Source: an uncultured Candidatus Saccharibacteria bacterium (GTDB taxonomy: Bacteria > Patescibacteriota > Minisyncoccia > Phycocordibacterales > CAIRYW01). Taken from it: DNA of 57,628 nucleotides. The notes under the pieces were generated by a model that saw nothing but the letters and a program-made list of their open reading frames with translations, did not search any database and was not told the DNA's origin. This document shows, one piece after another, positions 35,482 through 38,002 of this stretch. Every line of letters starts with the position of its first letter. The stretch's first letter is position 1. Location: NCBI GenBank assembly GCA_964554765.1, contig CAZKPS010000002.1, positions 63,808 to 121,435 of the forward strand. The letters run 5' to 3'. Both the position numbers and the translations under genes were made by a program.

Positions 35482-36519
35482 TTACGGGGTAAGAAGCTCG
35501 TCTGCGAGACGTGTCTGCCGGATTTCAGCCGTTTTTGCTTTGACCTGTTGCTGCAACTTCCAGCTGTTACCATGACTTAAAAGCCCGAGATATGACTGGA
35601 TCGTTTCTTCTTTCCCCTGCTTTGCCTTAATGCCATTCATCATCCTGCGCTTGGTTGCGGTGCGTAGGACGCGATGATCTGGAAAATGCACCCAGCCTAA
35701 AAAGTCCACACCGGATGCCACGGTGCTGATTGAAATTTTATTTGGATGCATGGTGAGCTTGAGTTTGTCTCTCAAAAAATCCTGCATCAGTGGCAAGATA
35801 CGTTCGAGGTAAACGCGATCGTGAGACACAACAGCAAAGTCATCGGCATAGCGAATATAATATTTTGCTTTGAGCCTATGCTTCACAAATTGATCGAACT
35901 CATTCATGTAAACATTCACCAGGAGCTGCGATGTAAGGTTACCGAGCGGAAGGCCAACACCTGCCGTAGTTGAATTGAAGCTGGAGACGATCATCGACAG
36001 TAGCCAGAGGATATCTTGGTCCGGAATATACTTACCCATTATTGCGAGCAAGGTGGTCTGATCAATATTCGCAAAAAACTTTCTAATGTCACACTTCAGG
36101 ACCCACGTTGAACGTGTGTTGTTTTGCGAAACGATATTGAAAAACTGTTTGAAGCGCCTTATCGCTCTATGTGTTCCCTTTCCAGGTTGGCACGAGTAGG
36201 AATCAGAAATAAATGTTTTAGTAAAAAATGGAGAAAGTGTGCGATGCAGAGCATGGTGCAATAGCCTATCTTGCACACTCGCCTTGTGTATATCGCGTGG
36301 TTTGGGATCGGAGATTTTAAACGCCTGATATTTCGAATGCGAATATGTTTTCGCGGCAAGCTCGCGGTGGAGAGAGATTATATTCGTCATTAAATTACGC
36401 TCGAACTCTTGAACGTCTTTACGAGCTCGCTTGCCGCAAACAAACTCTTTCCACGCTTCGAGGAGATTATCGAGCGAAATGATATTATTGTACGTATGTT
36501 GGAAAATAATTTTGGGCAT
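35482..36519 (-). CDS. Diversity-generating retroelement reverse transcriptase
   Basis: ISDSYSCQPGKGTH; LPLGNLTSQLLVNVYMNEFD (DGR-type GxxxSQ motif); YIRYADDFAV (YxDD). Start taken as MPKIIFQHTY. An in-frame upstream ATG at 36600 would add a (WLAG)n tract. Confidence 0.9.
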   Translation of the reverse strand: MPKIIFQHTYNNIISLDNLLEAWKEFVCGKRARKDVQEFERNLMTNIISLHRELAAKTYSHSKYQAFKISDPKPRDIHKASVQDRLLHHALHRTLSPFFTKTFISDSYSCQPGKGTHRAIRRFKQFFNIVSQNNTRSTWVLKCDIRKFFANIDQTTLLAIMGKYIPDQDILWLLSMIVSSFNSTTAGVGLPLGNLTSQLLVNVYMNEFDQFVKHRLKAKYYIRYADDFAVVSHDRVYLERILPLMQDFLRDKLKLTMHPNKISISTVASGVDFLGWVHFPDHRVLRTATKRRMMNGIKAKQGKEETIQSYLGLLSHGNSWKLQQQVKAKTAEIRQTRLADELLTP

Positions 36520-36928
36520 AAAGATAGCGCCAGCCAGCCAGCCAGCCAGCCAGCCAGCCAGCCAGCCAGGAAAGATTTTACCCGTTTTAAATAAGGTCAA
36601 GGGTGCTTATCTCACGTGGTACAAATTTTATCAAGACATCCCCAAAACCCACAGGCACTCGCTCGGTCAGCGTATTGATACTCTTTTTGTTGAAGTGATT
36701 GAGGCAATTTCTGCTGCGAGCTTTTTATCACGAGAAGAAAAACAACCGTATGTAAGGCTTGCCATCAAAAAGTCAGATACGCTCCGTGTACTTTTAATGA
36801 TCTTGTGGGAGACGAAATCTTTAGACGATAAAAAATATATTACTCTTTCTGTAATGCTCGATGAGGCAGGAAAAATGCTCGGCGGATGGAATGGTCAACT
36901 TACAAAACAAAACTCTCCCAAGAAATAG
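36479..36928 (+). CDS. avd: DGR accessory variability determinant (Avd, four-helix bundle); start uncertain
   Basis: LTWYKFYQDIPKTHRHSLGQRIDTLFVEVIEAI..LAIKKSDTLRVLLMILWE..LDEAGKMLGGW. I see no in-frame ATG/GTG/TTG between the CCAG tract and the Avd core, so the candidate starts (36431, 36479, TTG 36512) all lie upstream of the tract. Confidence 0.75.
   Translation: MILLYVCWKIILGIKIAPASQPASQPASQPGKILPVLNKVKGAYLTWYKFYQDIPKTHRHSLGQRIDTLFVEVIEAISAASFLSREEKQPYVRLAIKKSDTLRVLLMILWETKSLDDKKYITLSVMLDEAGKMLGGWNGQLTKQNSPKK
36530..36569. repeat. Perfect tetranucleotide repeat (CCAG)10 between or inside the divergent RT and avd reading frames
   Basis: ccagccagccagccagccagccagccagccagccagccag, counted directly. 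It encodes PASQPASQPASQP on the plus strand and WLAGWLAGWLAG on the minus strand. Confidence 0.95.
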
Positions 36929-36946
36929 GGAGAGAAATGAAGTGAG

Positions 36947-37049
36947 TTGCGAACGCCCGCAAACCACCAGTTGTCGTTCCAGTCGTTGTCGTTGCGGTTG
37001 ACGTTCACCTTGCGCTTGTCGTTCCAACGGTTGAACGTGGCGTAGCATT
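36947..37049 (-). repeat. DGR template repeat (TR), 103 nt, sense on the minus strand
   Basis: Aligns to 37386-37488 at an offset of +439. The sense strand encodes CYATFNRWNDKRKVNVNRNDNDWNDNWWFAGVR, rich in AAC codons. Confidence 0.9.
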
Positions 37050-37292
37050 GTACAGAGTCTCGTCTGCGTCACTGCCTCTCGAATACTCTCAAGGCTGTAT
37101 CGAATCCGGCATCATAATGCCTTAAAACTCTGTACCAAGTAGCTTCATTTTTTTGAAGTGTCTGCATGCACCACCCTATCTGAAGCCTTAACCGCAGATA
37201 CTCTCGGTGCATGGATACTGGGTTCGGTAGTGGGAAGCCGTAACCGCCCGCATATTCACCTACTGCCGACATAAGTATAAATGATTTTGTAT

Positions 37293-37334
37293 AAAAAATT
37301 TAGCCCCACTCCGACGAATCGGAACAGGGCTAAA
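37293..37334 (-). terminator. Rho-independent terminator after the DGR target gene
   Basis: Minus strand: tttagccc-20 nt (inner ccgattcgtcgg hairpin)-gggctaaa, followed by tttttt. Confidence 0.6.
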
Positions 37335-37347
37335 GACTAAGTTTCTA

Positions 37348-37361
37348 AGGACCGGAGTCCT
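37348..37361 (-). promoter_or_regulatory. Small GC hairpin with a 4-nt loop about 25 nt downstream of the VR; candidate DGR target-recognition hairpin
   Basis: aggac-cgga-gtcct. Confidence 0.3.
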
Positions 37362-37381
37362 GAGACACTCAGTGTTGAGAA

Positions 37382-38002
37382 CTACTTGCGAACGCCCGCA
37401 AACCACCAGCCGTCGCCCCAGCCGTCGTCGCGGCGGCCGACGCACACCCCGCGCTCGCCGAGCCAACGGCGGAACGTGGCGTAGCACCAGTGGCCTTTGG
37501 CGTCTTTCCAATGAGTGCCGTGAGGCTTCTCATCAGCGAAGGCAGGGTCCGCCTCGTTGACGGCTGCGACGGAAATCGGATCAGCGGGCTTGAGACCACG
37601 CAGTTCGTATTCCTTGTCGAGGTCGTCATCGGAGATGAAACCGTTGCGCTCCGAGAGATCGGGTTTGAAGAACACGATCTCGGCTTCGTCGCCCTCGCCT
37701 TTCGGCATCGCATCCACGACCTTACGGTCAGTGTATTGCGCGCGGCCGGTGGCTTCGATCGCCTCTTGCTGAGTGCGACCGCGATTCACCGGGACCTTGC
37801 GGACGATGAGGTTCGAGACCGCTTCAGCGCGTTCGCGGAAGGGAGAGAACATCATCATTCCGAGATTCTCGACTCCGAGAACCTGTTGGGCGACGTCTGA
37901 GGTGATCGAGGAACGATGCTTGCGCATCGCGTCCCGGAGTTTGTTGACGGCGTTTTCGATTTGGCCGTCGGTCATTTCGGCTGCAGTCATGATCTGTGTC
38001 AT
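37382..38002 (-). CDS. DGR target protein, 206 aa, no signal peptide; the VR encodes the last about 34 aa
   Basis: ..HWCYATFRRWLGERGVCVGRRDDGWGDGWWFAGVRK*; SD aaagga 8 nt upstream of the ATG. Confidence 0.85.
   Translation of the reverse strand: MTQIMTAAEMTDGQIENAVNKLRDAMRKHRSSITSDVAQQVLGVENLGMMMFSPFRERAEAVSNLIVRKVPVNRGRTQQEAIEATGRAQYTDRKVVDAMPKGEGDEAEIVFFKPDLSERNGFISDDDLDKEYELRGLKPADPISVAAVNEADPAFADEKPHGTHWKDAKGHWCYATFRRWLGERGVCVGRRDDGWGDGWWFAGVRK
37386..37488 (-). repeat. DGR variable repeat (VR) at the 3' end of the target gene
   Basis: 22 mismatches to the TR, and every one is at a TR adenine on the sense strand. The 3'-most 24 nt (ctggtggtttgcgggcgttcgcaa) are identical to the TR (IMH-like). 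Confidence 0.9.

Follow-up and report, generated by a model that had tools for sequence, protein, structure and literature searches.

A simple-sequence repeat at the avd/RT junction appears to turn targeted hypermutation on and off in a CPR diversity-generating retroelement

The prototype diversity-generating retroelement (DGR), that of Bordetella phage BPP-1 (mtd-avd-TR-brt), combines Avd and a reverse transcriptase (RT) with an adenine-specific transfer from an AAC-rich template repeat (TR) to a variable repeat (VR). Its TR and VR share an identical, GC-rich 3' end, a hairpin lies downstream of the VR, and all of these traits recur at the locus described here. To our knowledge little has been reported on how DGR activity is regulated, and no general off-switch is on record, although hypermutating a functional protein without restraint comes at a cost. 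The functional spacer of BPP-1 lies 3' of the TR and carries the Rfam RT-10 motif, one of the structured RNAs found near bacterial RT genes (RT-1 to RT-19; Weinberg et al. 2017, PMC5737381). Architecture B3, TR-(avd)-RT, makes up 90% of CPR DGRs, most of whose VRs were left unclassified (Wu et al. 2018, PMC5758913). That survey mentions neither a junction repeat, a homopolymer or phase variation, nor a structured RNA domain on the 5' side of the TR that has a promoter and terminator of its own. Simple-sequence repeat (SSR) contingency loci and phasevarions carry 5'-proximal repeats with units that are not a multiple of 3, such as (AGCC)n or poly-G in mod, opa and lic of Haemophilus, Neisseria and Campylobacter, and they show near-clonal length polymorphism and a frame-dependent full-length or truncated product (PMC11868660, PMC5909438). 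We found no description of a repeat switch at an avd/RT junction in the literature covered, a scope that stops short of the principal study of CPR DGRs (Paul et al. 2017).

The locus lies in a 57.6-kb stretch of DNA, called the window below (Table 1). Its RT contains the motifs SYSCQPGKGTH, LGNLTSQ and YADD, the latter two corresponding to the motif-4 [ILV]GxxxSQ and the YxDD of the DGR clade. The closest solved relative is PDB 8ub7 (4e-47), named only 'Reverse transcriptase' (328 aa), which we take to be the Bordetella phage bRT; group II intron RTs reach 5e-24. We confirmed 555 CPR relatives of the RT by tblastn and kept 80, for which identity is up to 79%. The order TR, reverse-strand avd, RT was found in all 77 relatives with avd detected among the 80 loci examined. 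In the window the TR is part of an RNA gene, 428 nt separate it from the RT start, and the VR lies at the 3' end of the target gene. Gene order and reverse-strand avd are those of the B3 DGRs of CPR and DPANN, as is the small target of unknown family with a C-terminal VR (PMC5758913), and the DGR itself is therefore ordinary. The sequence-only reading had described a complete DGR with a hallmark-bearing RT and an adjacent avd, of a class not new in CPR, and this description stands: RT, TR/VR pair, VR-bearing target and Avd are all there, the mismatches are exclusively adenine-specific and the locus is a genuine DGR of known CPR type. The proposed junction repeat switch and the structured TR-RNA gene are additions to it. 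The sequence-only reading had mentioned neither the opposite strand of avd, nor the structured RNA between VR and TR, nor the hypervariable tetranucleotide repeat at the avd/RT junction.

Table 1 Features of the DGR locus and its surroundings (positions in the window)
Feature	Position	Strand	Evidence or remark
DGR reverse transcriptase, 345 aa	35482..36519	-	RVT_1 3e-25
-10-like hexamer TATTAT	36483..36488	+	exactly 7 nt upstream of avd ATG
avd	36496..36928; Avd body 36572-36928	+	bAvd and DivGenRetAVD matches
Simple-sequence repeat, (GCCA)10.25 on + strand, (TGGC)n on RT strand	36529..36569	both	TRF
Terminator hairpin CTCTCCC...GGGAGAG + TTTTGTTTT	36904..36934	-	directly 3' of TR
Template repeat (TR)	36947-37049; secure core 36947-37047	-	repeat search and gap-free alignment
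Structured 5' domain of TR RNA, roughly 200 nt	37071..37267	-	covariation
Putative -10 box TATACT of TR-RNA gene	37274..37279	-	6 nt upstream of conserved GG at 37267
Intrinsic-terminator-like hairpin and T-run, closing the target transcription unit	37299..37334	-	kept in L007, L084, L016
Small GC hairpin AGGAC-TCCG-GTCCT	37348..37361	-	about 25 nt downstream of VR
Target gene, 206 aa, 61% GC, VR at C-terminus	37382..38002	-	ORF
Variable repeat (VR)	37386-37488; secure core 37386-37486	-	repeat search and gap-free alignment
Promoter-like site TTGACA-17-TATACT, upstream of target gene	38143..38171	-	consensus match only, 11/12 positions
Large serine recombinase	40915-42501	+	Pfam Resolvase, Recombinase, Zn_ribbon_recom
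tRNA-His	42490-42563	-	3' end overlaps recombinase stop codon

TR and VR were aligned without gaps at an offset of 439. This computed alignment gave 22 mismatches, each a T on the + strand of the TR and hence an A on its minus (sense) strand. Of these, 17 are A>G, 3 A>C and 2 A>T. No mismatch fell on C, G or T anywhere in the 103 nt, 30 of which are sense-strand adenines in the TR; for 22 mismatches placed at random, the probability that every one lands on these adenines is 3.9e-16. The sequence-only reading had reported the same 22 differences on about 30 adenines and had named a non-adenine mismatch inside the repeat as what would refute it; the count was reproduced and no such mismatch was found. 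The repeat length of 103 nt that it gave holds for the alignment, with a secure core of only 101 nt (20 of 28 adenines changed; P = 4.7e-15), because the two outermost mismatches (37048-37049, TR AA vs VR GG), at the edge of the homology, fall where the VR encodes a Trp that is over 90% conserved across the target family, and a non-A mismatch comes at the next base. A repeat search gave this pair too, at 101 nt, and at the other edge 36946 vs 37385 is a G/C mismatch immediately outside the repeat. Read directly, the TR holds eight AAC codons in the VR frame, matching the eight Asn positions noted earlier, and one more at the boundary. The final 3' 24 nt (CTGGTGGTTTGCGGGCGTTCGCAA) are common to TR and VR and GC-rich, again as noted, and the sequences diverge directly after them. 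Across related loci TRs are near-identical and VRs differ at A positions, at the IMH-like end a non-A change in the TR is matched by one in the VR, and the 883 homologues of the target protein vary only at positions encoded by TR AAC codons. The comparison of VRs across strains that had been proposed gave a divided answer: the window and both other public assemblies compared carry one and the same VR, and diversity at A positions is clear at the level of lineages.

The VR forms the last 34 codons of the target ORF and ends one codon before the stop. The target protein belongs to no Pfam or NCBIfam family, is conserved among its homologues except at the VR positions, and matched no solved structure by sequence. 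With E<=0.001 as the threshold, Foldseek matched its AlphaFold2 model (pLDDT 86, pTM 0.70) to no entry of PDB or BFVD, and no C-type lectin or Ig fold carrying the VR was detected by this search. By this search the target departs from that of BPP-1; a C-type lectin fold is usual in a DGR variable protein, not required. Related targets retain the 5-bp hairpin downstream of the VR through compensatory changes, such as GGAC/GTCC vs GGATC/GATCC, and it is absent after the TR. By analogy with BPP-1 it is a candidate target-site hairpin or cruciform.

Between VR and TR, an open reading frame (ORF67, 37069-37272) was considered as a gene and rejected, its frame being broken by stops and frameshifts in relatives; the nucleotide sequence of this region is conserved in 66 of 81 loci. 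RNAalifold folds the structured 5' domain of the TR RNA with 41 pairs, 30 of them with compensatory changes, and 97.2% of cells were paired vs 36-47% in controls in which the partners were slid. The domain has five to seven helices. Searching 36400-37500 against Rfam 15 at E<=10, RT-1 to RT-19 included, gave no relevant match for it and no RT-10 motif, the only two matches being to eukaryotic families with E>5. Upstream of the conserved 5' GG and the putative transcription start, a TAnnnT hexamer, often extended to TGnTAnnnT, ends 6-7 nt away (8 in one locus) in 57 of 58 loci. The terminator on the other side of the TR overlaps the avd stop codon on the opposite strand; it was found in 68 of 77 relatives vs 11 of 243 control windows, and its inner stems covary. 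The TR is thus, judging by these features, part of a separate small-RNA gene, about 360 nt in length, comprising -10 box, structured domain, 101-nt TR and terminator. The domain with its promoter and terminator is near-universal in this CPR DGR clade, as is the junction repeat. Like the Rfam RT motifs, the element is a structured RNA near a bacterial RT gene, but it differs from them in its architecture and in being placed 5' of the TR. It also departs from BPP-1, where the TR is not on a separate, terminated small RNA with the structured part 5' of it.

The avd product matched Pfam bAvd (5.5e-11, 43.3 bits, cut-off 40) and NCBIfam DivGenRetAVD (2.5e-17), the latter at 63 bits, under the curated cut-off of 80. 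The gene lies on the + strand, opposite RT, TR and VR, and in a further departure from BPP-1 it overlaps the RT gene head to head, by 24 nt, its conserved ATG being the antisense of RT codon His8. This ATG (36496), which is absent from 11 loci, is the presumed avd start. No Shine-Dalgarno sequence precedes it, and a TAnnnT hexamer stands 7 nt before it in 68 of 69 loci, a spacing that suggests a leaderless avd mRNA; the hexamer could also be a by-product of coding constraint on the RT. The N-terminal ILPVL of Avd shows synonymous codon variation and adjoins the repeat.

That repeat, 10.2 perfect copies of GCCA by TRF, lies in the avd 5' coding region, 11 codons in, and precedes the RT ATG by 9 nt. 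It is the sole SSR other than A/T tracts in the window, and GCCA is the same unit as AGCC, the repeat unit of phase-variable mod genes. An SSR occupies the avd/RT junction (roughly 58 bp) in 67 of 77 relatives (about 90%), at a density of 14.9 per kb vs 0.10 per kb elsewhere, a 146-fold enrichment; SSRs outside the junction are almost all poly-A/T or trinucleotide. Junction units differ by lineage (C, CA, GCCA, AACC, CAAT, ACGA and two 7-mers) and are 1, 2, 4 or 7 nt long, never a multiple of 3. They create no stop codon in the avd sense, and in the RT sense two unit types do. In most loci the conserved avd ATG lies 28-50 nt upstream of the repeat.

Repeat length is polymorphic between contigs with identical proteins in four lineages. 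The window and L086 have n=10 and L081 and L085 n=11, and over 6.6-8.5 kb they show no further difference. Two poly-G lineages each vary by one G (G10 vs G9 in L098/L099; G9 vs G10 in L106-108/L109), and (GT)7 vs (GT)6 was seen among L100-L105; these poly-G and (GT) variants are otherwise 99.5-100% identical. Frame analysis places avd in frame with ATG 36496 (ON) at n = 9 or 12. The ten units of the window shift this ATG to frame +1 relative to the Avd body and yield a 32-aa peptide, and n = 11 gives an immediate TAG stop. Translated in silico from the conserved ATG, repeat length decides between an Avd of 133 aa and a frameshifted product of 21 aa in L098/L099, and between 135 aa and a frameshifted 57 aa in L109/L106, so that full-length Avd is toggled in two of the four polymorphic lineages, both of them poly-G pairs. 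The avd gene is in frame with the conserved ATG in six of eight repeat-free loci vs 10 of 59 repeat loci (Fisher P = 0.0017). The latter share (17%) is depleted relative to random (binomial P = 0.008) and fits a mostly-OFF switch, a figure that wrong start-codon assignment might also give. With avd out of frame at n=10, the element is therefore probably OFF in the window. The sequence-only reading had called the DGR 'intact and apparently recently active', a description that the out-of-frame avd and the VR shared by the window and two other assemblies do not bear out. Other starts in frame with the Avd body exist at n=10 (TTG 36512, ATG 36479), and avd may therefore not be fully off.

From the sequence evidence as a whole, the repeat appears to turn targeted hypermutation on and off, and we regard it as quite probable that the locus is a CPR-type B3 DGR of four transcription units, namely target gene, TR-RNA gene, avd and RT gene, and that its repeat phase-switches avd and hence hypermutation. 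Several other explanations were weighed. That TR and VR are a duplicated gene fragment diverged by ordinary mutation or gene conversion has practically no chance of being right: the existence of a repeat is all that speaks for it, RT and Avd adjoin the pair, many relatives show the same pattern, and the computed alignment, with mismatches confined to one base and one strand (P about 4e-16), rules it out. A second rival traces the length differences between contigs to errors of sequencing or assembly rather than to biological polymorphism. It draws on the error-prone nature of G9/G10 homopolymer calls and on the coverage of about 1.9x of one contig (NODE_651), and is very unlikely, as (TGGC)10/11 and (GT)6/7 arrays shorter than one read also differ and 9, 10 or 11 units occur in related strains whose flanks are identical. 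Moreover, another poly-G lineage has the same G10 in 10 independent assemblies, and the junction shows neither indel nor length variation in six contigs of a lineage free of the repeat. The stable G10 lineage can equally be read in favour of an ordinary, constitutively expressed CPR DGR with the repeat as a tolerated, mutation-prone avd/RT linker of no regulatory role, as can the alternative in-frame avd starts of the window and a share of ON loci that is not above chance. This too we consider unlikely. A tolerated linker sits poorly with the enrichment of SSRs at a position kept while the unit sequence turns over, with units that are never multiples of 3 and leave the avd sense free of stops, with the preferential in-frame state of repeat-free loci, with ON being depleted rather than random, and with the toggling of full-length Avd in two near-clonal pairs.

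A phase switch that acts mainly on RT transcription, through -35/-10 spacing or the 5' leader and not through the avd frame, is possible yet rather doubtful. Spacings counted by hand in poly-G loci argue for it: a TA-starting hexamer directly follows the tract in about 30 of 46, in 21 of 46 exactly 7 nt separate that hexamer from the RT ATG, and a CTGGCA-like -35 lies 14-21 nt upstream at a distance set by tract length, a layout known from the poly-G promoter switches of Neisseria porA and Bordetella fim. However, the tetra- and heptanucleotide arrays (26-78 nt), that of the window included, far exceed a sigma-70 spacer, the window lacks a -10-like box at this 7-nt distance from the RT start, and both the frame statistics and the repeat-free loci favour avd translation. 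In poly-G relatives the primary effect of the repeat may nonetheless be on RT transcription rather than avd translation, and the two modes are compatible because the repeat sits in the control regions of both genes.

Under the phase-switch reading on avd, slipped-strand changes in repeat number would bring avd into and out of register with its ATG, making the repeat a stochastic, heritable ON/OFF switch for Avd and therefore, as proposed, for hypermutation; in poly-G relatives it may also tune RT transcription. The effect would be exerted at the protein level and the switching would be reversible. On the model of the homologous Bordetella phage system, the TR RNA would be copied into cDNA by RT and Avd with misincorporation opposite adenines, and the mutated cDNA would replace the VR, so that the eight AAC-encoded positions of the target protein would be randomised; each of these retrohoming steps is drawn by analogy. 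Most cells would hold the diversifier silent and rare slippage variants would turn it on, a two-tier bet-hedging system with a contingency locus as gatekeeper of a retroelement mutator. Coding-repeat control of avd would set the locus apart from BPP-1. It would likewise differ from described SSR contingency loci, where the gated gene specifies a surface structure or methyltransferase; here it is a hypermutation accessory factor, and one mutational switch would therefore control a second, far stronger mutator. The repeat here lies, in addition, upstream of a divergent RT gene, and the hosts are uncultivated environmental Patescibacteria rather than host-adapted pathogens. We lean slightly towards extending this reading, repeat-gated hypermutation together with an uncatalogued structured TR-RNA gene, to a large Patescibacteria DGR clade of hundreds of lineages.

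If true, a repeat switch on avd, and possibly on RT, would explain the clonal VRs of many environmental DGRs with intact machinery, and repeat length would become a sequence-readable predictor of the ON or OFF state of DGRs in metagenomes. Contingency-locus biology would reach beyond host-adapted pathogens to CPR bacteria, whether free-living or episymbiotic. The compact TR-RNA gene and the apparently leaderless, overlapping avd and RT make up a minimal, portable DGR design of interest for engineering targeted mutagenesis.

The GC profile places the DGR on a higher-GC island with inferred boundaries at about 35000-42500. No att repeat was found at the island, and the serine recombinase and tRNA-His (40915..42563) are its probable edge.

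The RT encoded in the window carries the motifs SYSCQPGKGTH, LGNLTSQ and YADD, which the sequence-only reading had called DGR hallmarks, and it matched the Pfam profile RVT_1 at 3e-25. Its closest solved relative was a 328-aa reverse transcriptase (PDB 8ub7-8ube, E = 4e-47), which, from its length, we take to be the DGR RT of the Bordetella phage, its PDB name being just 'Reverse transcriptase'; group II intron RTs followed far behind (5e-24). The proposed adjacent avd gene was confirmed by a match to Pfam bAvd above the cut-off, with a further match to NCBIfam DivGenRetAVD (2.5e-17) under that model's cut-off. 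Unlike RT, TR and VR, it is read from the plus strand.

Features of the DGR and its surroundings (window coordinates)
Feature	Position	Strand	Remarks
Type III restriction-modification pair	mod 32625-34322; res 30377-32641		mod without SSR
RT	35482-36519	minus	start ATG 36519; motifs and profile match
avd/RT head-to-head overlap	36483-36519 region	both	24 nt; avd ATG antisense of RT codon His8
-10-like TATTAT	36483-36488	plus	7 nt before avd ATG 36496
Junction repeat (GCCA)10.25	36529-36569		(TGGC)n on RT strand
avd body	36572-36928	plus	Pfam bAvd, NCBIfam DivGenRetAVD
Hairpin/terminator after TR	36934-36913	minus	directly 3' of TR
TR	36947-37049	minus	
Structured RNA domain	37064-37274	minus	about 200 nt; covariation in alignment A1
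ORF67	37069-37272		67 codons
TR-RNA -10 box TATACT	37279-37274	minus	precedes G37267
Target terminator	37334-37299	minus	
Target gene	37382-38002	minus	206 aa, VR at C-terminus
VR	37386-37488	minus	
Target promoter-like site	38171-38143	minus	
Large serine recombinase and tRNA-His	40915-42563		end of higher-GC block; recombinase stop codon overlaps tRNA-His 3' end

A gap-free comparison of TR and VR (offset 439) gave 22 mismatches, each a T on the plus strand and an A on the minus (sense) strand. This agrees with the earlier count of adenine-specific differences, and the computed alignment held no mismatch at C, G or T inside the repeat. On the sense strand the changes comprise 17 A>G, 3 A>C and 2 A>T; the chance that 22 random mismatches among 103 positions would all fall on the 30 TR adenines is 3.9e-16. 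The length of 103 nt stands for the repeats as aligned, but the outermost mismatches (37048-37049) probably lie beyond true homology, because at this place the VR codes for a Trp whose conservation across the target family exceeds 90%, and the base that follows differs at a position that is not an A. This leaves a secure core of 101 nt in which 20 of its 28 adenines are changed (P = 4.7e-15). Also as described before, the TR contains eight AAC codons when read in the VR frame, and the 24 nt at the 3' ends of TR and VR are the same. The two sequences diverge right after. In two close relatives (L007, L084) the TR equals that of the window over its A-rich part and the VRs differ at A positions, both from the window VR and mutually, while the IMH-like end carries three non-A substitutions, each common to a locus's own TR and VR. 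This is the pattern expected if TR-to-VR homing has recurred in the lineage.

The target protein belongs to no Pfam or NCBIfam family. Its 883 homologues (E<=1e-5), all of about 206 aa, are highly conserved save at the C-terminal positions matching the AAC codons of the TR. AlphaFold2 gave a confident model (pLDDT 86, pTM 0.70), for which a C-type lectin fold is not confirmed: neither a Foldseek search of PDB and BFVD (E<=0.001) nor a phmmer search of PDB sequences gave a significant match. At 61% GC (GC3 74%) the target gene differs from avd (40%), RT (45%) and the whole window (41%). Homologues in other CPR genomes of about 40% GC show about 88% DNA identity, which makes the high GC a trait of a travelling target cassette.

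A scan of one genome per species confirmed 555 RT relatives, and the 80 that were kept came essentially all from Patescibacteria MAGs. An avd gene was detectable in 77 of them, in every case on the opposite strand and immediately upstream of RT. The layout of the window element is B3, 'TR-(avd)-RT', which makes up 90% of CPR DGRs and is found almost nowhere else (Wu et al. 2018, PMC5758913); as DGRs go, the window element is thus typical of a known kind. Neither the class itself nor its abundance in CPR is new, as the sequence-only reading had said, and the B3 layout had likewise been described. Among the relatives, one locus (L016) has two VRs (632-731, 1624-1724), hence two target genes, for one TR. 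In L082 (metagenome contig Ga0187893_10011855) TR and VR are merged into one hybrid repeat (1536-1636) and the approximately 340 nt between them are deleted, RNA domain included; this DGR was apparently destroyed by TR/VR recombination.

The perfect (GCCA)10.25 array detected by TRF in the avd/RT junction is the sole SSR other than poly-A/T in the 57.6-kb window. When the junctions were lined up, nearly all relatives proved to have a repeat at this place, with differing units. On the RT strand it is poly-G of 7-14 in most relatives, (TGGC)n in the window, L006, L007 and L008, (TTGG)n in L003, (TTGA)n in L004, (TTCG)n in L005, a 7-mer unit in L001 and L009, and (GT)n in L044, L065 and L074. Under strict criteria an SSR was present in 67 of 77 junctions (about 58 bp each), equal to 14.9 per kb, and SSRs occurred at 0.10 per kb in the remaining 792 kb of the same loci. 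The latter are poly-A/T or trinucleotide repeats, save one hexanucleotide repeat and two poly-G tracts in L017 (3403-3413 and 5252-5262), the only poly-G outside avd/RT junctions in the 792 kb, one of which lies just past the RT stop. Junction units measure 1, 2, 4 or 7 nt, never a multiple of 3, and can produce a stop codon in the avd sense for none and in the RT sense for two.

Repeat length also varies between nearly identical sequences. Contigs L081 and L085 (ENA ERZ15185866) equal the window over 8.5 kb save one added TGGC (11 units vs 10), L086 (ERZ28615168, sample SAMEA7428533) matches the window at 100% identity and likewise has 10 units, and related strains of 81-88% overall identity have perfectly conserved repeat flanks around 9, 11 and 11 units. 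Three other lineages were sampled via contigs encoding an identical RT protein. We found G10 vs G9 with one other mismatch in 2 kb (L098/L099), G9 in L106-108 vs G10 in L109, and (GT)7 in L100, L103 and L105 vs (GT)6 in L101, L102 and L104. No length change at the junction was found in six contigs of a repeat-free lineage, nor in ten contigs of the target protein lineage P0021, where the invariant G10 indicates that assembled homopolymer lengths are reproducible. For the lineage of RT P0127, with three degenerate units, one of the 11 existing contigs was examined, and the look-up revealed no variation in the repeat.

At its N-terminus Avd keeps the motif (K/R)-I-L-P-V-L, whose codons vary synonymously and which adjoins the repeat (0-6 nt off in most loci), so translation of avd must start ahead of the repeat or within it. 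In the loci that lack a repeat or have a degenerate one, and whose frame is open (L010, L012, L013/L014, L054, L078, L097), one particular ATG, 42-48 nt upstream, shares the frame of the Avd body. It is the antisense of the conserved RT His8 codon (CAT), so that avd and RT have a head-to-head overlap of about 24 nt. We chose this homologous ATG as the avd start since it alone gave a coherent picture; accepting any in-frame ATG, GTG or TTG made about one third of loci 'ON' and was uninformative. By the conserved ATG, 6 of 8 repeat-free loci are in frame (effectively 5/7, as L013 and L014 are near-duplicates) vs 10 of 59 repeat-bearing loci (Fisher P = 0.0017), the latter depleted below one third (P = 0.008).

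The junction repeat would, we propose, serve as a reading-frame switch on avd. In silico, G10 encodes a 133-aa Avd and G9 a 21-aa peptide in L098/L099; G10 of L109 encodes 135 aa and G9 of L106-108 an out-of-frame 57 aa; the (GT)6 and (GT)7 alleles are both out of frame. At the window locus ATG 36496 is in frame with 9 or 12 units (as in L082), the present 10 units yield a 32-aa peptide, and 11 units place TAG directly ahead of the repeat. By this reading the window avd would be in the OFF phase, which fits the identical VR in the window and the two public assemblies compared. Residual expression at 10 units is possible via in-frame starts at TTG 36512 or ATG 36479. RT, Avd, TR and VR are all in place, but the earlier description of the element as intact and apparently recently active is not supported: the window and the two assemblies share one VR, and avd is out of frame with ATG 36496. 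Expression, switching rate, reversibility and a link to mutagenesis are what we infer from sequence.

In a groundwater lineage, that of target protein P0021 (L087-L096; 54 contigs), with the chromosomal order ileS-recO-target...RT-CLIPPER, many samples share the exact same VR protein despite flanking divergence of up to 1.3%; G10 is invariant, avd is out of frame and RT has no recognisable start codon, so that this DGR looks silenced or decaying. In L097, of the P0127 lineage (11 contigs), only TGGC TGGC TGGT remains of the repeat and the conserved ATG lies in the avd frame; the lineage looks locked ON.

Other roles for the repeat were considered. A G-quadruplex or purely structural role was dropped, as (CAAT)n and (CA)n arrays cannot form such structures. 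The window array is partly self-complementary, a terminator scan flagging an 18-bp hairpin, and may favour slipped structures or fold in an RT 5' leader. A look-up of the 372-aa RT reading frame that runs through the repeat returned no record. An effect on RT transcription is suggested for the poly-G class, where a TA-starting hexamer directly follows the tract in about 30 of 46 loci, is separated from the RT ATG by exactly 7 nt in 21 of 46, and would have a CTGGCA-like -35 upstream at 14-21 nt by tract length (counted by hand); this would be a leaderless RT mRNA with the tract inside the promoter spacer. The window array, at 41 nt, is too long for a promoter spacer and no such box precedes the RT ATG there, so the avd frame is the better-supported target at this locus; the two modes are not exclusive. 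A TAnnnT hexamer also precedes the avd ATG by exactly 7 nt in 68 of 69 loci, and both mRNAs may be leaderless, although RT coding constraint on the opposite strand could account for this hexamer. A strict sigma-70 consensus scan of the junction found no promoter; the -10-only patterns here and at the TR RNA came from comparing loci. In the full texts searched, Paul et al. 2017 lying outside their scope, no account turned up of a repeat at the junction or of phase-variable DGR components, and neither Wu et al. 2018 (PMC5758913) nor Roux et al. 2021 mentions them.

Between VR and TR, ORF67 gave tblastn matches in most relatives. We rejected it as an accessory protein because the matches hold in-frame stops and frameshifts despite nucleotide conservation in 66 of 81 loci, and the region covaries strongly as a fold. 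Alignment A1 (51 sequences) supports 41 consensus pairs in seven helices, 30 of them with compensatory double changes, and has lineage-specific hairpins inserted in loops; its many G-U pairs place the RNA on the strand of TR and RT. With the structure fixed, 97.2% of cells pair vs 36-47% when partners are slid by 1-3 columns, double-change cells number 285 vs 34-54, and the observed values were reached by 0 of 500 shuffles. In 57 of 58 loci a TAnnnT hexamer (often TGnTAnnnT) ends 6-7 nt, or in one of them 8 nt, before the conserved GG at the 5' end. Directly 3' of the TR, a hairpin CTCTCC...GGAGAG is followed by TTTTGTTTT; such a hairpin/terminator occurs in 68 of 77 loci vs 11 of 243 control windows, and its inner stems covary. 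From its own -10 box, RNA domain and terminator, and because the target has a promoter-like site and terminator of its own, we infer a discrete TR RNA of about 360 nt with a structured 5' domain, the TR and a terminator. The domain is absent from Rfam 15, which returned nothing relevant for the region even at E<=10, no match to its RT-associated motifs (Weinberg et al., PMC5737381) and, at the gathering threshold, only five tRNAs in the whole window.

The DGR lies within a block of higher GC (approximately 35000-42500; 0.45-0.56 vs about 0.39), which also encodes a winged-helix regulator, a DUF5659 protein and unknown proteins and ends at a large serine recombinase and tRNA-His. This suggests an integrated mobile island carrying the DGR. 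No att-type direct repeat of the tRNA-His 3' end was found to delimit it; serine recombinases need none, so its absence has no bearing on integration. Hand inspection of the tRNA-His acceptor stem showed a mismatch of A4 with C69, as though element sequence had taken the place of the 3' half. A different lineage has the cassette between ileS/recO and a CLIPPER-domain gene, with no recombinase; the cassette thus moves between contexts. Beside the island, at 27948-34556, lies a defence-gene neighbourhood with a Cro/C1-type HTH gene, the Type III restriction-modification pair and a DUF2726 nuclease-like gene.
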